Virus record (IMG/VR): IMGVR_UViG_2636415477_000006
Span: 1-18,348 of that record
Strand: one strand, 5' to 3'
Length of the DNA stretch: 18,348 bases
Source of the DNA: a virus
Lineage: Duplodnaviria > Heunggongvirae > Uroviricota > Caudoviricetes
The notes under the pieces were generated by a model. That model saw nothing but the letters and a program-made list of their open reading frames with translations. It had not been told where the DNA came from and searched no databases. Shown piece after piece: positions 1 through 13,074 of this stretch. The position numbers and the translations under genes were made by a program. The stretch's first letter is position 1. Each line of letters starts with the position of its first letter.

Positions 1-70
1 GTGGGTCGACAGAATCCATGCCGACACGTTCAGCCAGCTTCCCTGCCAGCGTTGCGAGTGCTGTACTCAT
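1..70 (-). CDS. bet: Bet (Red-beta) single-strand annealing protein, N-terminal 23 codons only; gene continues beyond window start
   Basis: Reverse complement of 1..70 translates MSTALATLAGKLAERVGMDSVDP, which I recognise as the lambda Bet N-terminus; it sits 5 nt downstream of the gam stop in the same operon. Confidence 0.75.
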   Translation of the reverse strand, partial: MSTALATLAGKLAERVGMDSVDP

Positions 71-75
71 CCGTT

Positions 76-372
76 TTATACCTCTGAATCAATATTAATT
101 TGGTGACGGGCGATGGTTTCAGCCATGTAGCGGATGTGTTCTGCCATGCGTTCCTGAAAATCGACATCGTCATCAAATGCACGGGAAATAGCTTTTTTGC
201 TGGCCCCGTGACGTTGCAGATTATCGATGCATAGCGATTCAAACAGGTGTTGGGGCAGACCTTTTTCCAGGTCGTCTGCCAGCTCAGCTTCAGTTTCTTC
301 ACGGGCAATTTGCTGGTAGTGTCGTGCCCATGACTGCTCTTCAATGCGATCGGGGATAAGCCAGGCATTCAT
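76..372 (-). CDS. gam: Gam host-nuclease (RecBCD) inhibitor, short GamS-length form, 98 aa
   Basis: 98-aa ORF is near-colinear with the lambda GamS sequence as I remember it (…QSWARHYQQ…[13 protein letters not shown]…LQRHGASKK…[12 protein letters not shown]…); start ATG overlaps the stop of the upstream gene (ATGA); lies directly upstream of bet. Confidence 0.85.
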
Positions 373-2441
373 GATTTATCACCTCCGAAATTTTCAAGCC
401 TGTTGGCAATCATGATGGCGATATCAGGGATTGCTGGCGCTGTGGCTATACATGCGGGGTTGGCGCACAAACCATAGACGGCGGCAATCACGAGCTGTCT
501 TTTCCAGTCGAGAGTTACTGGCTCAGAATTGGCGTCATCGCCGGACGTATCACTGCCTGGCTCGTTCTGAACAACGGTTTCGCCCTCCTGAGCGGCATCA
601 ACAGAGTTTTCCTGAATGATCTTCTCCTCAGTTTGTGCTGAGTCTTCTCCATCAGCGGCGTCATTTTCTCCAAAAGTTTCTGTGTAAGTGCTATCGCCCA
701 TTACCGCACTACAGTCAGGGCAGTTACCCCCGCCAGTCTGACCACAGACGCGGCAGTTTTTTTCCAGCTCCGGTTGCGCTACTGGCCCTGGCTGTTGCTC
801 TTCTGACCCGTTTTGTTGCGTATCCGGGCTGTTTTGTCCCGCTTCTGGGGCAATTTGTTCCACTTTGGACTGATTCTGGTCCTCAGTGTCGCGAGTCTGG
901 ATCCCCTTCACCCACTTCGGATCAGCAGGGTTACTGATGCCTTCAACGAATTCTCCACGCGAGGCAGCCAGTAATTTGTCGGCATCGACTGGATTTTTTG
1001 GGGGGATGTTTTCCCTGGCTTTATTGAGTTCCTCCCTCAGTTCCTGGTATTTCGTTTCTACAGATGAGACATTTTCCAGTGATTGCGTGTCCTCATTATG
1101 TTTAACTGGAATTTCTTCCACTGATTCAGGCGCTGCCTGTTCATTAGCCATTGTGTCCGATGCTTGTTGCTTTTCTTCATCGCCATGTTTTCCTTCTGCT
1201 GTTCCGCGCTGCGGCATCGGTGCTGATGAGCGACCGCAGGCAATTTCCACGATTTCCGGATCCGGGTTAGCGTGATCGGTTTCGGTCAACACTTTGTTGA
1301 GATATTCAGTCACGCGTGCCGGGATGGCCTCAATGCCGATTGGTGCTTCTTTCACGGAAGCCACCACAATGGCGCGGGAATAATCCAGCCCACCGGGCAT
1401 GGCGATAAATTTGTCGCGAAAAACAGAAAAGGGCGGCTTATTCTCTGACACGATTTCTTCAACGCGTTTTGCGTGTGCTGGGTGCAGGTTATAAATATCC
1501 ACATCCATTGAACGGGCCAGAACGCCGGTGGCTACATCTCGTGCGAGTGATGTCTTATCATGTTTGAATCCTTCACCACGATCGGTAAGATTTCCGCCGC
1601 CAGCGTTAGCACCGGAAGGCGTACGGGTAATGCCTGAAACATAATTTCCGTTCTGCCATTCTTTTGTCAGCAGGCCCTGATCAAGGTAGTCAGTTTTCAT
1701 CCAGGTGGAAATGAACTTGTCGAATTCAGCCGGGCTGATGCGATGATTTGCAGAGTGGGGGAATGCTTTCCCTACAGATTCAGCCAGGCGACTAAGGTGA
1801 TAGTTCGTCAGTTTATCCAGTTCATGATGTGCGGCGCGCACAGCAGTAAGCAGGCTCTGAAGGTAACTGTCCTCTGTGTCCATCTCCATACGGATCACGT
1901 TATTGCGTTGTTCTGGTGTGGCGTGATGCCGGTATTTTCCATCTTCATCTTTGCTGAATAAGAAGAGGTGAAGGAAGCGATGAGTAAGGCTCAGAGTGGC
2001 GACGGGAATTTCACACTCAGAACAGTCATCGTCGCTGTCCGGGGATTCGCTTTTCTCCACATCATCCGGAATAGTTCCGTCCAGGTTATCGTTGTCATCG
2101 CCAGCAGTTGTGGCATCTTCACCGTTGATGTTGTCATCGAAGGGGATAGCCATCATGGTGATGCCATCGTTACCGCCTTTTTCATAGCGGTTGCAGAATT
2201 CAGTATCAAACACGCCTTCCGGTGGAAGGTCATTCACGACGGGGAAATTTACGCGAACGGGTTTTTTGAAATCATCCTCGTCGTAGCCTGCATCGTCCAT
2301 GGCTGCAATGCAGCGGGAAACTGCGACAGAAAGTTTTCTGGCCTCGGTCCAGAAAAAACCGCCTTTGATGCCAAGGCGTTTTCTGACTTTATCGTTTTTT
2401 GCTTCGCAGTGTAGTGCAAAAGTCTGTTTATCAGCGCTCAT
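369..2441 (-). CDS. Large acidic 690-aa protein, possibly related to the non-nuclease N-terminal region of RecE (exonuclease VIII); Cys4 zinc-ribbon-like motif (CRVCG…CPDC) near C-terminus; no recognisable nuclease motifs
   Basis: Long ORF with SD-like AGAGG 10 nt upstream of the ATG at 2441; Asp/Glu-rich low-complexity stretches; a central [16 protein letters not shown]…[13 protein letters not shown]…NLHPAHAKR segment that I associate with RecE; translationally coupled to gam. Confidence 0.5.
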
Positions 2442-2517
2442 TGTATTTAAACCTCTGGCTGGATTAGAATTAGCGGCCCTTTGTCTGATTTCTCCGAATA
2501 CGGTGACGCAGGGAGAA

Positions 2518-2550
2518 ATCCGGTAGCCTGCGCTGCCGGATTTTTATTTC
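2518..2550. terminator. Hairpin with T-run on plus strand and U-rich tail on minus strand; likely terminator after the 128-aa moron gene
   Basis: ATCCGG…CCGGAT outer stem with inner GC-rich pairing, followed by TTTTTATTT on plus strand; on minus strand it lies immediately after the stop at 2549. Confidence 0.4.
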
Positions 2551-2935
2551 AGTGGAAGGTTGCCTGGTTTGCTGTTTTGTGAGTTGTTTTTCCCTTTTCG
2601 TGCTGGCATTCAGGGCAGTCGCACTCGGAATTTTCTCTTGCAAACTCAAGAGCCTGCGCCAGTGTATGGATTTGTTGTACTCCAATGTTGCTTCTGACGA
2701 CTTCACGTGCAGCATGAATATATGGGCTTGGTGTTTTGCCATTTAACCCACATAAAACAAAACGACTGTCCTTATATTCGTTATTTCCAACTTCTGTAAG
2801 CACTGAAAAAGAAAATACAAAGTCGATTTTGTATTCTTTGCATATTTTACTGATGCGTTCTGCAATTTCTTTGAGTTCATTTATTGCATCAGGACTGGTT
2901 TCGGAAAATATTTCATTTTGCGCAAGTTCTTTCAT
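2549..2935 (-). CDS. Hypothetical 128-aa protein with C-terminal Cys cluster (ECDCPECQHEKGK); AT-rich moron-like gene
   Basis: ORF in a locally AT-rich segment (about 2750..2950); weak SD (GGAAAAA) upstream of the ATG; followed by hairpin at 2518..2550. Confidence 0.5.
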   Translation of the reverse strand: MKELAQNEIFSETSPDAINELKEIAERISKICKEYKIDFVFSFSVLTEVGNNEYKDSRFVLCGLNGKTPSPYIHAAREVVRSNIGVQQIHTLAQALEFARENSECDCPECQHEKGKTTHKTANQATFH

Positions 2936-3018
2936 TTTGATTTTTCCGTGATTGATAATTAATGCGGTTTTATTTCGGCTTGTCTGTTACAGATATGGAA
3001 GGTGTATTTTATTACTCG

Positions 3019-3240
3019 TCACAACGACGCTGCTTTTACGGGTAAGCCATCGCGCCCGATGAAAACTTTAATCATGCAGTCGGTAATGCATGTTTTTGTT
3101 GTGAAGTTACGAATATAGAGTTTTCTCTTTTCAATATTGTTTGCTGAAGCGATATATGTCCGACCTTCATGAAGAACATAATCGCCAGGCGTCACGCACT
3201 GACGTGGTATTTCATCAGTTCCGAAGTGATGAGCAATCAT
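3019..3240 (-). CDS. kilR: KilR-like small killing protein (Rac prophage FtsZ inhibitor family), 73 aa
   Basis: Start at the internal ATG at 3240 has a GGAGA SD 6 nt upstream; the product [35 protein letters not shown]…[13 protein letters not shown] matches my memory of Rac KilR in sequence and length. Confidence 0.6.
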
Positions 3241-3696
3241 AATTATCTCCATTTTCACAAATGAACTTTGTTGATGCGGTGCCTGGTGCCTCCAGGTGAC
3301 GTTAACCAGTTAACAACTAACGCCGGGTCAGGGGACGATGACTTTCCGTGACATCCTGTCGGTTTAACTGTTCCGCGTGCGCATAGCCGCATTCACCGCA
3401 TCACAAAATTCACTTTAAAAAGGGCGGACATCAGCAATCGGCAAACCGATATCCGCCAAGGGTTACACACAGCAATGTTGTTATTCACAACCGGAAGCGC
3501 ACGGTCGAAGAAATCTAACGACAATCCTTCTATGGGAAAGAGTCTTCGCCTCGCGCTTTCGTGTAGTACCCTGGCTTTCAGGGTAATGTCTGTTCAGTAA
3601 ACTGAGAGTGCAGGAACTCACCCGTGTCCGGCGCACGATCTCCACCTCACCCGTGGAGAACTCCTCAACTACAAACCCCGTAAGGAGAGTGAATTT

Positions 3697-4661: not shown

Positions 4662-4967
4662 TCAATCGTAATAAGCCGGAATTGATTTTCCGCGTTGTTT
4701 CTGGCGGCCTGAGCAAGTCACACCCATTTCACTGCGTGGTTTGCGGTAGTAAATACGGTTCTGTTTACTCTCGACTTCTTCTGCCTTCTTGCAGCGAAGG
4801 CTTCCGAGTGATACTGCTTTGTCTGCTCCGACGCAACCAGAGATCTTTAGCGCAATCTTCCGTGTCAGTCTTTCACTACTGCGTCGCTCTGCAATAAGTT
4901 CTTCCCTGCGAGCTTTATAGCGGCTTTTTGCCGTACCTTTGGATTCTTTCCAGATTATGGTTACCAT
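4662..4967 (-). CDS. N: N-like transcription antiterminator (arginine-rich motif near N-terminus), 101 aa
   Basis: AAGGAGA SD 5 nt upstream of the ATG at 4967; N-terminal GTAKSRYKARREELIAERR is an arginine-rich motif resembling P22/lambda N family; first gene downstream of the pL/nutL candidate. Confidence 0.6.
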   Translation of the reverse strand: MVTIIWKESKGTAKSRYKARREELIAERRSSERLTRKIALKISGCVGADKAVSLGSLRCKKAEEVESKQNRIYYRKPRSEMGVTCSGRQKQRGKSIPAYYD

Positions 4968-5118: not shown

Positions 5119-5164
5119 GGCCAATCTGTTCCGTTTGGCTTCCAGCGTCCTGCTGTTGAATTGA

Positions 5165-5239
5165 AGATAACCTAAGTTATCTGGTTGTTCAATAACTATA
5201 TTTATCATTTTATGAAAAACGTTATAAATAACTGATAAC
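5165..5239 (-). promoter_or_regulatory. pL/OL candidate: minus-strand promoter TTGAAC-17-TATCTT overlapping operator ATAACctaaGTTAT (5167..5180), with further ATAAC/GTTAT half-sites at 5221..5239
   Basis: -35 (reverse complement of 5187..5192) and -10 (reverse complement of 5165..5170) with 17-bp spacer; same ATAAC-N4-GTTAT dyad as in the cI-cro intergenic region. Confidence 0.45.
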
Positions 5240-5300
5240 AAAAATATTTTATTTTTTGTGGTATCCGCGTGATATTTTCAAGGGGGAAAGGCTGATTGTT

Positions 5301-5522
5301 ATGGGTGATTGCATGTTAATCGAAGGGGAATTTGGTGTGTTGCACCAGCGGGTAGTCGAAATTCTAGGGGTGTCGTTGCTTGAGGTTATTGCTACTGGGG
5401 AAGCTATTTCAGCAGATGCTATTGCGGGAATGATCCGAGTGCTTCACCATGATGAATTGGATGATCTCGCTGTGAAGTTAGCTATAGATGTGTTACTTCA
5501 GGATATGCGACTGTGTAATTAA
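5301..5522 (+). CDS. Hypothetical 73-aa protein on plus strand between OL and cI, convergent with cI
   Basis: ATG at 5301 preceded by AGGGGGAAAGG; only ORF of note on either strand across 5256..5522; AT-rich putative promoter overlapping operator half-sites upstream. The ORF track extends it to a TTG at 5256. Confidence 0.45.
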   Translation: MGDCMLIEGEFGVLHQRVVEILGVSLLEVIATGEAISADAIAGMIRVLHHDELDDLAVKLAIDVLLQDMRLCN

Positions 5523-5523
5523 G

Positions 5524-5552
5524 TAAATAAAACCCGGCACTGGAGCCGGGGG
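5524..5552 (-). terminator. Intrinsic terminator downstream of cI (shared bidirectionally with the convergent plus-strand gene)
   Basis: CCCGGC-actgga-GCCGGG hairpin; on minus strand it is followed by UUUUAUUU; on plus strand by a weaker T tail. Confidence 0.55.
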
Positions 5553-5674
5553 ATTTAGAAATGGCATTTTATGAATTGGCTACTTGGCGAATGGTTTACC
5601 ATCGGTGGTATTGAGCACAATAAAAGGCCGTTCTTCGTGAGTGTTCTTATAGCAAAAGTTCAGTTGGAGTCTGA

Positions 5675-6382
5675 TTACCAGCTATGTGATGACCAGAACA
5701 CTCGCCCTATGATTCTTACGTTTTTGTAGAATTCTTCTCTGTTCATTACTTCATCAGGATACTCTTCGCGGTTTATCGATCTGATAATTACCGATGTTGG
5801 CGTGGCTATGAGCGTTTTTACCCTTAACAAATCAGCTTGGCAAATTGCATATGTTTTACCATCCCTGATGCTCGTATCTTGCGTGTTTACCCCCACCACA
5901 TCACCATCATGGAGTGTTGGCTCCATGCTTTGCCCAACAACCCTGACCAACTTTGCCGCTTTTTCTGGAACTCCCATTTTTTTCAGGTAATAGCGCCTAA
6001 AAACTAGAGAGAATTCTGCGGACTCCTCCAATGCACAACTTCCTCCGCCAGCTGAAAGTGAAATATTTAGAAGGGGGAGCGCAACAAATTCGTCATTATC
6101 ATTTTGATGATCATCCCAGGCGATAGCTTTTAAAGATGATTCCCGAGCATTAGATGGCTCTTCTGCGCTCTGTGGTCTCATTGACCCTATACCAGAGCTT
6201 AGCCATTCAGGGCGAACTCTTAACGCGTTGGCTAATTCGACCATTTTACGTGATCCGGTTGTTTTACCAGATGACATCTTTTGTATGGCTGGTTGTGATA
6301 CCCCCACCATGTCTGCAAGTTGTGCTTGTGACAACCCGGCTGAACTCATGGCGGCATTTAGTCTTTCTGCGAATGTTTTCAT
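5675..6382 (-). CDS. cI: CI-type prophage repressor: N-terminal XRE-family HTH plus C-terminal S24 (LexA-like) autopeptidase domain, 235 aa
   Basis: N-terminal …LSQAQLADMVGVSQPAIQKM… HTH; Ala-Gly-type cleavage region (LSAGGG); GQSMEPT serine motif; divergent from cro across an operator-rich intergenic region. Confidence 0.9.
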   Translation of the reverse strand: MKTFAERLNAAMSSAGLSQAQLADMVGVSQPAIQKMSSGKTTGSRKMVELANALRVRPEWLSSGIGSMRPQSAEEPSNARESSLKAIAWDDHQNDNDEFVALPLLNISLSAGGGSCALEESAEFSLVFRRYYLKKMGVPEKAAKLVRVVGQSMEPTLHDGDVVGVNTQDTSIRDGKTYAICQADLLRVKTLIATPTSVIIRSINREEYPDEVMNREEFYKNVRIIGRVFWSSHSW

Positions 6383-6492
6383 ACCTGTAATCTATAACCA
6401 CGGTTATCAAAAGTAAAACAACAATTGTTATTGCCCTGGTGTATAACTCATGTTATTTTTGGTTATGCTTTATTTGCTGTAGAGGTATGCTC
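6383..6492. promoter_or_regulatory. OR/pRM/pR candidate region: three dyad operators (ATAACcacgGTTAT 6394..6407; AACAATTGTT-centred site about 6417..6431; ATAACtcatGTTAT 6444..6457)
   Basis: Repeated ATAAC/GTTAT half-sites spaced about 24-26 bp centre to centre; plausible minus-strand pRM TTGTTT-18-TTATAG ending just before the leaderless-like cI ATG; the plus-strand pR is not pinned down. Confidence 0.5.
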
Positions 6493-6717
6493 ATGAATTT
6501 AGTGATTCAGCGAGCCTTGAATATTGTTGGCAGTCAAAAACGACTTGCAGCTGATTGCGGCGTATCACAGCCCGCTGTTCATAAATGGTTGCGAGGCGGA
6601 AAAGTTTCTCCTGAAAAAGTTTTCGCTATCGTTAATGCCACCAATGGTCAGGTTAAGGCTTACGAAATTCGCCCGGACTTACCGCACCTGTTTCCTCATC
6701 CGAACCAGGCTGAATAA
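6493..6717 (+). CDS. cro: Cro-like HTH regulator, 74 aa
   Basis: GAGG SD 7 nt upstream of the ATG at 6493; product has a …LAADCGVSQPAVHKW… HTH; divergent from cI. Confidence 0.8.
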   Translation: MNLVIQRALNIVGSQKRLAADCGVSQPAVHKWLRGGKVSPEKVFAIVNATNGQVKAYEIRPDLPHLFPHPNQAE

Positions 6718-6833: not shown

Positions 6834-7130
6834 ATGTCACAAACAAGTTACAGCAAACTGTCACAGCGCGATATCGATCGCGCTGAAACGGATTTACTTA
6901 TCAACCTGTCAGCTCTGACGCAAAGGGGACTGGCGAAGATGATTGGCTGCCATGAATCGAAGGTCAGTCGTACCGACTGGCGATACATCGCGGCGATTTT
7001 ATGCGCGTTTCAGATGGCATCTGATATCAGTCCGATCAGCCGGGCTTTCCAGCATGCCATTAACGTTCATGCAAATAAAAAACGTCCGGTTGGGGCCGGA
7101 CGTTCTGAGCAAATCCTGATGAATATCTGA
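6834..7130 (+). CDS. cII: CII-like transcriptional activator, 98 aa
   Basis: AGGA SD; C-terminal …NKKRPVGAGRSEQILMNI resembles the lambda CII C-terminus (…NKKRPAATERSEQIQMEF) from memory; position immediately after cro/nutR. Confidence 0.8.
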   Translation: MSQTSYSKLSQRDIDRAETDLLINLSALTQRGLAKMIGCHESKVSRTDWRYIAAILCAFQMASDISPISRAFQHAINVHANKKRPVGAGRSEQILMNI

Positions 7131-10482: not shown

Positions 10483-11157
10483 TCATATAGAGGCTGAATC
10501 TGATCTTTTTTGTTCACGTCTGGCTTCCACCATTGCAGGCAGAGTGAAGGCGTAGACTAAAAACATTTCGGTAAAACTCAGGATCTGGCTTGCCTCAATT
10601 GGTGTGAAAACTTCATCTGTATGAACTGCTTTATTGGCATCAATTCGTACAATATGAGCCCATTCCTTCATCTGTTCAGTGATCAGGCCTTTTTTGTAAA
10701 TCATCTGAATACGTTGCGACAGCGATTCTTTTCCTGCTTCATCGCCGAGCAGTTTTTTCGTGGAGATATCGAGGACTCTGCGACAAAGAATAACCACTGT
10801 GTCGTACCGCCTCCTCTGTAAATCCTCTTTTGCCTCAACAAAAGTACGGTCTGCAACCGGGGGCGTATATTCTGGTGCGGTAATTTTTTTGACCACAGGA
10901 TAGATCTTGCGGAAACGGTACTGGCTATTTCCTGAAATCAGAATATCGAGGTCTTTTTTCTGGCTTTCCGCCATGGGACCGTGATAGTGGTCTGATGGGA
11001 TTTCAACAATAGCAACACCTCCTCGATGACAACTTCTGCATACAAAAGCGACGTTAAAAAAAGGTGTTTTTTCAATTTGTTTTTCGGCAAATGCCTCAAT
11101 AACAGCTCGCTCTTTTAAACAGTGCGGGCATGTGATATCAAAGGAGACTAAACCCAT
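10483..11157 (-). CDS. Zinc-ribbon (CPHC…CRSC) protein with C-terminal alpha-helical domain bearing an R-x3-N-x3-H motif (HEPN/DUF4145-like); candidate abortive-infection/defence effector, 224 aa
   Basis: Start at MGLVSFD has GAGGAA SD 5 nt upstream; N-terminal CxxC-x21-CxxC; C-terminal …EWAHIVRIDANKAVHTDE…; start codon overlaps the divergent plus-strand gene within CCATGG. Confidence 0.55.
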   Translation of the reverse strand: MGLVSFDITCPHCLKERAVIEAFAEKQIEKTPFFNVAFVCRSCHRGGVAIVEIPSDHYHGPMAESQKKDLDILISGNSQYRFRKIYPVVKKITAPEYTPPVADRTFVEAKEDLQRRRYDTVVILCRRVLDISTKKLLGDEAGKESLSQRIQMIYKKGLITEQMKEWAHIVRIDANKAVHTDEVFTPIEASQILSFTEMFLVYAFTLPAMVEARREQKRSDSASI

Positions 11158-11401
11158 GGATATTCCTCGCGAAATTAAAGAAATTAACGAAATCATTGAG
11201 GTTACTGATCGCCCCGAGTTTACCCTCATGCGTCGTTATGAAACAGGAACCGACGAACAAAAATACATCATGGTTGCAGCATTGGCTGTGATGGCGATAG
11301 AAAGGGAGCGAAGGGAAAAGGACGTAATGGTTATTCCTGAGAGAAATGATTCACCGGATTTGAGATGGCAGGAGCCGGAGTGGGATGTGGTAATCCGGTG
11401 A
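11156..11401 (+). CDS. Hypothetical acidic 81-aa protein, divergent from and start-overlapping the zinc-ribbon/HEPN-like gene
   Basis: AAGGAGA SD 7 nt upstream of the ATG at 11156; charged helical product. Confidence 0.4.
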   Translation: MDIPREIKEINEIIEVTDRPEFTLMRRYETGTDEQKYIMVAALAVMAIERERREKDVMVIPERNDSPDLRWQEPEWDVVIR

Positions 11402-12125: not shown

Positions 12126-12241
12126 TTGACGACAACACATATCCGGGATTATATTCTTCGCACGCCAGCAAAATCTGGCGTCGGGATTAGGAACCCCGGA
12201 TAGAAACCGCGACAGAGACACGCCGCGAGCGTGTTTTTTAT
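12126..12241 (+). ncRNA. Candidate small RNA or terminated leader: promoter TTGACG-17-TTATAT (12126..12154), about 80-nt transcript with hairpin CGCCAGcaaaatCTGGCG and intrinsic terminator (12218..12241)
   Basis: Near-consensus -35/-10 with 17-bp spacer; two hairpins; terminator ACACGC-cgcga-GCGTGT followed by TTTTTTATT; no ORF is involved. Confidence 0.35.
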
Positions 12242-12402
12242 TGTCGTATGCACACGCACATCTGAATTATGGTGGGGCGTATAGGGGAGCTGAAAAGCTC
12301 GCCGGTTGGTTTCCCGGTAGTTCCTAACCCTGTACGTCTCGCCACCCGATGATTAGGAACCTGACGGTGGTGATAGTTTAGAAACCACTCGAGGGCGTCA
12401 TT

Positions 12403-13074
12403 ATGACAACTCAAGTTTCTGTTGAAACACTCTCCACGATTACTTACAAGCAGATCCCCGTTATCACTACCGAACTTTTGGCGCACCTTTACGGCACAGA
12501 AGCTATTCGTATTCGCCAGAATCACCACGAAAACAAAGGTCGTTTCATTGAGGAAAAACACTTCTTCAAACTTGAAGGTGAAACTTTACGTGAGTTCAAG
12601 CACAGAGTAGCTTTTAACTACTCTGTGAAAATTGCCCGTAACGTTCGCTCCCTCATCCTATGGACAGAACGCGGCGCAGCCCGTCATGCAAAAATGCTCG
12701 AAACCGATCGGGCGTGGGAAGTGTTCGAAAAACTGGAAGACTGCTATTTCAGCCAGGGAAAAACAACACAAACCGAACAGCAGTCGCAGATTCAGCCACA
12801 ATTCACAGCCGAGGAAATCATCCTCCTTTGCTACATGCAACTCTGGATGGAAAAAGCCCAGGACCTTAGCAAGCAGCTGTACCCCATAATGAAAGAGCTG
12901 AACTCCTCATACACGAACAAGCTGTATGACATTGCGTTTGAGACTATCTACATGGTGACGAAGAACAGAGACGCGCTACTAAGGGAGGTAACACGTCTCG
13001 ACATGTCAAGTTCCGTTATCCAGCGGGCCATGCCAATGCTGAAAAGCCTGCGGGCAAGACAATTTGAATTCTGA
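12403..13074 (+). CDS. ORF6N/KilA-N-type domain protein (antirepressor-like), 223 aa
   Basis: N-terminal …ITYKQIPVITTELLAHLYGTEAIRIRQNHHENKGRFIEEKHFFKL… fits the ORF6N pattern from memory; GAGGG upstream of the ATG. Confidence 0.65.
   Translation: MTTQVSVETLSTITYKQIPVITTELLAHLYGTEAIRIRQNHHENKGRFIEEKHFFKLEGETLREFKHRVAFNYSVKIARNVRSLILWTERGAARHAKMLETDRAWEVFEKLEDCYFSQGKTTQTEQQSQIQPQFTAEEIILLCYMQLWMEKAQDLSKQLYPIMKELNSSYTNKLYDIAFETIYMVTKNRDALLREVTRLDMSSSVIQRAMPMLKSLRARQFEF

Follow-up and report, generated by a model that had tools for sequence, protein, structure and literature searches.

Genetic organization of the locus

The window, which means here the whole stretch of 18,348 nucleotides that was analysed, represents the early region of a lambdoid Stx-type prophage, and its segment 5000-5750 shares 99.2-99.3% identity with the Escherichia phages PA28 and 06-3462 as well as with a set of Stx1a-converting phages. 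The first gene of the leftward pL operon is an N-like antiterminator gene (4662..4967, minus strand, from the ORF list), whose product gives a weak match to Pfam N_peptide (E 8e-4) and is annotated as antitermination protein N in PA28 and 06-3462. The cI-type repressor gene is located at 5675..6382 on the minus strand; its product harbors the Pfam domains HTH_3 and Peptidase_S24 and is annotated as a CI-like repressor in NC_041935. It is followed on the plus strand by cro (6484-6717) and cII (6834-7130). Between the N-like gene with OL/pL on one side and the 3' end of cI on the other, a small plus-strand ORF is found that is convergent with cI. The initial annotation had placed a small gene opposite to cI in exactly this interval, and the ORF coordinates, the conservation and the purifying selection described below all bear it out. 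The GC skew is positive across 5200-5700, a region flanked by two minus-strand genes.

The small gene and its start codon

The frame is open from 5256 to 5522 on the plus strand and contains in-frame ATG codons at 5301 and 5313, which would give rise to proteins of 73 and 69 aa, respectively. Both forms have entered the databases, since OP797663 annotates 5301-5522 (73 aa) and RefSeq/PGAP annotates 5313-5522 (69 aa, WP_024166114.1). The N-termini of homologues with 30-66% identity align with the Met at 5313 (MLIEGEF versus MAIEESF and MKSEEEFF), and because the homologues begin at this second ATG, the alignment points to ATG 5313, not 5301, as the start. The gene is thus given as 5313..5522 on the plus strand, with the upstream ATG at 5301 as the alternative start of a 73-aa form, and its product as a 69-aa acidic protein predicted to form three helices (PHROG 3946; WP_024166114.1). 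The 73-aa ORF first proposed for this place is retained in its frame, while its start at 5301 gives way to 5313, which is favoured by RefSeq and by the family alignment. Some gene callers place the start still earlier, at TTG 5256 (88 aa; entry P0002 is an example). This start was rejected, since the conserved promoter element lies downstream of it and the homologues have no counterpart to it.

Conservation together with purifying selection makes the small ORF more than a chance open frame. Comparison of the window gene with five diverged homologues gave pN values of 0.27-0.41 and pS values of 0.77-0.88, the synonymous sites being saturated, and dN/dS ranged from 0.07 to 0.51 in less saturated pairs. 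The length of the ORF is kept at 65-70 aa, and Shine-Dalgarno-like sequences are present in the relatives shown. From these sequence comparisons it is almost certain that the small ORF is a real protein gene under purifying selection. The contrary explanation holds that the ORF is fortuitous and not translated, and that the conserved element is a non-coding or antisense transcript or the A/T-rich upstream part of pL. Such an explanation could draw on the distance of about 88-101 bp by which a conserved T-tract precedes the inferred pL start, a position comparable with that of the IHF/UP-like element of lambda, and on the existence of at least one allele frameshifted at a G-run (complete genome 2014C-3338) in addition to the truncated or frameshifted entries P0004-P0007. 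It is nevertheless highly improbable, because amino acids are conserved while synonymous sites are saturated, and because the length is conserved and Shine-Dalgarno-like sequences are present in the relatives shown. Moreover, Rfam contains no RNA family that matches the ORF locus, and the frameshift carrier is the sole complete genome in the list without the annotated ORF, the five other alleles checked being translated intact.

Two intact alleles, reading ILGVSLL and ILGGALL, occur in E. coli. They differ at 5367-5373, where GGGGTGTCG is replaced by GGGGGGGCG (Val-Ser to Gly-Ala), which generates a G7 homopolymer in the PA28-type alleles. The frameshift of genome 2014C-3338 lies at this G7 run, and the entries P0004-P0007 map to the same place, so that the run could be a site of slippage-prone inactivation.

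Operators and the candidate leftward promoter

The operators were searched with the pattern ATAAC-N4-GTTAT, up to 2 mismatches being allowed. At 5167..5180, OL1 (ATAACCTAAGTTAT) is a perfect palindrome with 0 mismatches and has the same motif as the three OR sites within 6394-6456, and OL2 (ATAACTATATTTAT, 1 mismatch) is located at 5192..5205. Together with OR3 (6394-6407), OR2 (6418-6431) and OR1 (6443-6456), these are the only matches with 0-1 mismatch in the window. A tentative OL3 (ATGAAAAACGTTAT, 2 mismatches) at 5212..5225 lies 20 bp from OL2, a distance that fits an operator; matches with at most 2 mismatches number 15 against a chance expectation of 7.0 +/- 2.7, and the level of the tentative OL3 is reached by chance elsewhere in the window. 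The pL candidate occupies 5163..5192 on the minus strand, with a -35 of TTGAAC (reverse complement of 5187-5192), a -10 of TATCTT (reverse complement of 5163-5168) and a spacer of 18 nt. As in lambda, it overlaps with OL1 and borders on OL2, an arrangement read directly from the sequence; the element is absent from the list of the consensus promoter scan, and its assignment as pL is one that we infer.

Operator half-sites had also been reported upstream of the small gene. OL1 and OL2 prove to be real, but the stretch GTTATaaATAACtgATAAC (5221-5239) on which the additional half-sites were based consists of the right half of the tentative OL3 and two partnerless ATAAC pentamers. Position 5230 within these pentamers is G in 21 of 24 near-identical loci, so the extra half-sites are not conserved.

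The same 24 near-identical loci, which represent 14 haplotypes, have 15 of the 20 variable sites of 5150-5680 within the 91-bp operator/pL stretch 5150-5240, including 5188/5189 within the -35 of pL and 5166-5184 inside or next to OL1. Hardly any variation is seen among these loci in the ORF or at the 3' end of cI. At two positions the window departs from most of these relatives, carrying T rather than G at 5189 (unlike 22-23 of them) and A rather than G at 5230 (unlike 21). The variability of the operator/pL stretch could result from selection on operator or promoter strength, or from recombination.

A candidate promoter outside the operators

The ORF list contains no co-directional gene upstream of the small ORF, which hence needs a promoter of its own. 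The candidate is an extended -10, TGaTATTTT, at 5270..5278 on the plus strand, deduced from its conserved position. Of 15 diverse loci, 12 have a TGnnAnnnT motif 36-43 nt before the start codon and the other 3 lack it; the hexamers vary (GATACT, CATACT, TATGCT, TAGGCT, GATAAT, TAAGCT and, in the window, TATTTT), whereas TG, A2 and T6 are constant. A T-rich tract, ATTTTATTTTTTGT, occupies the -35/upstream position at 5244..5257 on the plus strand and has counterparts in related loci, as a ATTTATTTTT-like tract is present upstream in all 12 loci with the extended -10 and mostly ends 11-13 nt before the TG. A strict sigma-70 scan for -35 and -10 returned no plus-strand promoter at the ORF, and a consensus -35 is lacking. 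On this comparative evidence, the ORF is probably transcribed from an extended -10 promoter of its own at 5270-5278; the putative plus-strand start of transcription would then lie near 5285.

The last candidate operator is 5212-5225, and the extended -10 begins about 45 bp to its right, which places the core promoter clear of the operators. Judged by eye, the distance between the last operator and the promoter apparently also differs between two loci (5225 to 5270 in the window and about 5926 to 5961 in the related locus L003). Occlusion of the ORF promoter by the repressor is, as far as the positions of these elements tell, not supported. The geometry of the locus had been taken in the initial annotation to suggest repressor-controlled divergent transcription. 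That suggestion is at odds with the sole promoter element conserved in the family, about 45 bp beyond the last operator, and also with the occurrence of the same protein beside three different Klebsiella repressors, which shows no tie to one immunity specificity. Indirect effects on the ORF promoter, exerted via OL-OR looping or via pL-driven supercoiling, could still exist.

The T-tract at 5244-5257 is about 88-101 bp upstream of the inferred pL start, which we take to be approximately the place of the IHF/UP-like element that stimulates pL in lambda, and the tract might serve both divergent promoters. Two other candidates for the transcription of the ORF were discarded. A sigmaS-type -10 (TGC-G/C-ATACT, with C at -13) can be read in Salmonella-type loci, but the element of the window, TGATATTTT, is without the -13 C. 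STnc6030 or another transcript of BTP1 was considered as the RNA of the ORF; STnc6030, however, runs antisense to the tailspike region, and BTP1 is missing from the tblastn matches, so its transcriptome offers no evidence for the ORF.

The terminator between the small gene and cI

An intrinsic terminator of the cI operon lies at 5523..5550 on the minus strand, composed of a hairpin at 5533-5550 and a T-run at 5523-5532; the terminator scan reported it on the minus strand only. The folding energy of the hairpin is -13.4 to -14.2 kcal/mol, with z of about -3.1 to -3.6. Its U-run is present solely on the minus (cI) strand (UUUUAUUUAC, 5523-5532), and the plus-strand tail reads GGAUUUAG. Since both the U-run and the scan score are confined to the minus strand, the hairpin is assigned to the cI transcript. 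It is a terminator of the cI operon that abuts the stop codon of the ORF and is at best weakly bidirectional. Of the bidirectional terminator that the small gene was once thought to share with cI, the hairpin itself is thus upheld, as a good terminator for the cI strand only.

Downstream of the ORF, the AAAACCCGGC...GCCGGG hairpin recurs in the related loci L004, L027, L033, L042 (as a variant), L044 and L029 (cut by IS1), and in L003 a later hairpin is found about 90 nt downstream of the stop codon, with T-runs flanking it on both strands. In L029 (2700-3470; Klebsiella phage ST974-OXA48phi18.2), IS1 is inserted exactly in the post-ORF hairpin and separates the homologue from a degraded cI region.

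Distribution and synteny of the family

The protein matches the profile of PHROG 3946 with E 2.6e-30 (residues 2-66 on positions 2-67 of 67), and three other members match it with E values of 1e-25 to 9e-41. A single-sequence search recovered ten close clusters only, two of which (66% identity) belong to other lambdoid phages, and tblastn detected a homologue in 56 of 50,697 phage records, among them Salmonella P22-like phages (ST104, epsilon34, g341c, MG40), Klebsiella prophages and Stx1a phages. Profile searches extended the family to 26 representatives at the 50% identity level and 618 clusters at 90% identity, from Enterobacterales of the genera Klebsiella, Salmonella, Escherichia, Citrobacter, Enterobacter, Serratia, Yokenella, Trabulsiella and others. 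A degenerate-pattern scan of genome contigs returned no relative, and scans of viral and metagenome sequences returned near-identical copies only.

The gene occupies a constant slot in all 17 diverse loci compared, which span Escherichia, Salmonella, Klebsiella, Citrobacter, Serratia, Yokenella and others. These loci are arranged as N or other leftward early genes (minus), operators, the gene (plus), zero to two cargo genes (minus), cI (minus), cro (plus) and cII (plus). The concern that the ORF might not be conserved in related immunity regions is thereby removed. In complete E. coli genomes, the gene is present in 50 of 5,426, which are exactly those with this cI type, and a sister immunity region (cI 79% identical; 113 genomes) is without the gene and has same-strand ORFs following cI. 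In Klebsiella, an identical protein (P0042) adjoins three different repressors, and the gene is thus not tied to one immunity specificity. The operator sequences of L004 and epsilon34 are common to both, and their gene variants share only about 55% of residues. The N proteins across the loci come from different families, namely N_peptide, N36 and Phage_N_antitermin. This pattern of presence is that of an accessory gene with a moron-like distribution, and the G+C content of the ORF (about 0.43-0.46) is similar to that of its flanks.

Cargo genes on the cI strand are located between the small gene and cI in several loci (L004, L043, L045-L047, L027). They are often of a defence type, and encode P63C proteins, a protein with KilA-N and BstA_C, and a 307-aa hypothetical protein (MG40). 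The small gene therefore often neighbours BstA-like abortive-infection loci, and it is present without cargo in the window, L033 and L042.

The family has already been catalogued as hypothetical proteins (RefSeq WP_024166114.1 and WP_024174011.1; PHROGs), and no feature is annotated at the position of the gene in PA28, epsilon34 and ST104. In the epsilon34 paper, genes 44 and 45 alone are discussed in the cI-to-pL interval. The searchable literature contains no paper on the family, its accessions or its PHROG identifier, and as far as that literature goes, the fixed slot, the conserved extended -10 and the YmgB-like predicted fold are new descriptions.

Predicted fold and comparison with YmgB/AriR

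The AlphaFold2 prediction, based on an alignment of 30 sequences, is a three-helix bundle with helices at residues 4-28, 34-44 and 52-62 (pLDDT 84.2, pTM 0.72); the means of the five models were 84, 64, 63, 60 and 58, so that the best alone is confident. An independent model of a Salmonella member (90 sequences) gave the same architecture with a pLDDT of 83.7. The protein appears as a soluble acidic helical bundle with amphipathic helices, whose longest uncharged hydrophobic stretch comprises about 7 residues, and no transmembrane stretch is present.

In a Foldseek search against the PDB, the top match was E. coli YmgB/AriR (2oxl_A; probability 0.90, TM 0.60/0.65, E 0.62), a regulator of stress and biofilm formation and the small connector protein of the ycgZ-ymgABC operon (2OXL; PF10798), and the predicted phage model has the three-helix fold of 2OXL. 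Three-helix bundles are a common fold. Alignment of the family with a YmgB-family alignment by hhalign covered helices 1-2, including a shared VLGxAV motif, over 35-38 columns (P 0.016-0.042), and the score was reached by 1 of 100 column-shuffled nulls. The phage family resembles YmgB in its acidity as well (pI 4.2-4.4 versus 4.6). On the strength of the models, the fold is with good confidence YmgB-like, and remote homology to YmgB is plausible, though not established. Pfam PF10798 does not include the protein, as the YmgB HMM matched neither the window protein nor nine relatives even at E up to 10, and gave 90 bits for authentic YmgB.

Other resources contributed little. Pfam, NCBIfam and PADLOC yielded nothing meaningful for the window protein and its relatives, and a sequence search of the PDB with the family profile produced matches at chance level only. 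One distant member gave a sub-threshold match to DUF2767 (E 0.032; 14.7 bits, the cut-off being 20.7), and one UniRef cluster bears the name 'DUF2767 domain-containing'; no paper mentioning DUF2767 was found in the searchable literature. Homology and structure prediction, which had been recommended as a check, have thus placed the protein in the PHROG 3946 family with a YmgB-like predicted fold and outside any Pfam, NCBIfam or PADLOC family.

YmgB forms a dimer and uses helix 3 to bind SpoT, for which the surface residue Arg74 is required; it brings about SpoT-dependent accumulation of ppGpp, and it activates the Rcs phosphorelay independently of SpoT binding (PMC10704370). In the phage family, helix 3 has the consensus DLAVELAIDVL with no conserved Arg or Lys, the equivalence to the position of Arg74 being deduced. 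With no conserved basic residue in helix 3, the targets of YmgB cannot simply be transferred to the phage protein. What may be transferred by analogy is the mode of action, that is, regulation by a small protein that binds another, and not the identity of the target. The two proteins differ further in size, the phage protein having 69 aa and lacking the N-terminal ~25 residues of YmgB (88 aa), and in genetic setting, as the phage gene lies in an immunity region whereas ymgB belongs to a chromosomal operon controlled by BluR.

Proposed role of the small protein and alternatives

Taken together, the locus may be read as a moron-like cassette that consists of its own extended -10 at 5270-5278 with the T-tract before it, the 69-codon gene at 5313-5522 and, adjoining the stop codon, the hairpin of the cI terminator. 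The gene would encode a soluble acidic (pI ~4.4) three-helix protein of YmgB-like fold that binds and modulates a regulatory protein of the host, or possibly of the phage, and it would probably be neither DNA-binding nor membrane-acting. Because the promoter lies outside the operators, transcription would be expected both in the lysogen and immediately on infection, independent of cI occupancy. A cassette of this kind, encoding a small YmgB-like protein-binding modulator that is probably expressed in the lysogen, is the reading that we prefer, tentatively and at something short of even chances. Its functional part, the action as a protein-binding modulator, leans on the analogy with YmgB and is possible but doubtful. 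The 'regulator' mentioned among the early suggestions for this gene is compatible with the predicted fold. An extension of the same analogy, in which a phage-borne YmgB/AriR connector situated beside pL and independent of cI would bind a host stress-signalling protein (SpoT or an Rcs component), is decidedly unlikely.

Alternatively, the invariable place beside pL could point to a function in the phage switch itself, with the protein modulating lysis-lysogeny through cI stability, RecA-mediated cleavage, N or pL activity, so that the OL/pL position reflects its role; 434 Hex is an example of a protein that acts on RecA-mediated repressor cleavage. The constancy of the slot in 17/17 loci and the 1:1 linkage with this cI type in E. 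coli (50 genomes each) speak in favour of it, and divergence from pL would permit coupling by supercoiling or OL-OR looping. A specific contact with an immunity-specific partner is improbable given that an identical protein accompanies three different repressors and that the N families differ across loci; with the promoter element outside the operators and a sister immunity region that works without the gene, a switch modulator is on balance unlikely. An exclusion factor, as the initial annotation proposed, would be a superinfection-exclusion or abortive-infection protein made by the prophage and filling the slot of lambda rexAB. The cI-pL interval is indeed a known site of defence cargo, and related loci carry BstA-type (KilA-N + BstA_C) and P63C genes in it, but PADLOC gave no match for four family members, and a 69-aa soluble acidic helical bundle without a long hydrophobic stretch or a transmembrane segment does not share the character of SieA, SieB or RexB. 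The strand is also opposite to that of the cI-operon cargo, and the gene is present with or without such cargo, none being found in the window, L033 and L042, which leaves this function improbable. Similarly small is the chance that this is an immediate-early protein for host takeover or anti-defence, produced on entry of the DNA from a promoter that is not repressed; it would then be a small acidic protein inhibiting a nuclease or a defence system of the host. Many anti-restriction and anti-defence proteins are small and acidic, as is this one (pI 4.2-4.4), and the candidate promoter is independent of the cI operators; on the other hand, there is no similarity to a known anti-defence family, the best structural match is a cellular regulator, and the gene lies outside the early operons, where anti-defence genes are usually sited.

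The preferred reading, a moron-like cassette, can be compared with several known systems. Phage morons, a concept developed from HK97 and HK022, are independent promoter-gene-terminator units between phage operons (PMC3594210). The present locus resembles them as a single small gene with its own promoter-like element between two operons, with presence/absence polymorphism and independence of the immunity type. It differs from them in keeping one position in all the genera, which is uncommon among morons, in a G+C content that does not stand out from the flanks, and in that the terminator after the gene mainly serves the opposite (cI) strand. The same cI-to-OL/pL interval is occupied by rexA/rexB in lambda, BstA in BTP1, Hex in 434 and Nun in HK022, and it is as a rule expressed from the prophage, as is the case for cI-bstA of BTP1 (PMC7067206). 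Those genes have the orientation of cI and share its transcripts from PRM/PRE, whereas the small gene is on the opposite strand with its own candidate promoter; it coexists with cI-strand cargo in several loci and has no sequence or fold similarity to rexAB, BstA, Hex or Nun.

If the connector reading were true, the prophage would reset the ppGpp, envelope-stress, acid-resistance or biofilm physiology of the host, and in Stx phages a feedback on induction and toxin release would be possible. A YmgB-like connector expressed in the lysogen would offer prophages, including Stx1a-converting ones, a new route to alter stress responses, acid resistance and biofilm formation of the host, and prophage stability may change too, since ppGpp and envelope stress influence lambdoid development. 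The gene is widespread and lies in a heavily studied immunity region, yet it is unannotated in epsilon34, ST104 and PA28. Even if it is an ordinary accessory gene, its annotation is corrected in start codon and strand, a candidate promoter is identified, and the hairpin is recognized as the terminator of the cI operon.

Other features of the window

Several further elements were observed in the window. A gene for a DUF4145 protein at 10483-11229 (minus strand) is oriented against the rightward early/nin genes, and this orientation of its own suggests another accessory insertion, possibly defence-related. Rfam matches at gathering level were obtained for isrK (12162-12239) and C4 antisense RNA (12265-12349), which are located directly upstream of an antirepressor-type ORF with ORF6N and P22_AR_C (12403-13074), so that 12162-13074 resembles an antirepressor module under RNA control, carried by the prophage that also has the cI switch. 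The sRNA family STnc100 is represented by two copies, at 16118-16309 and 16585-16794 (145 and 138 bits), and both lie upstream of an ORF (16996-18117) with DUF1737 and SASA, a NanS-p-like esterase.
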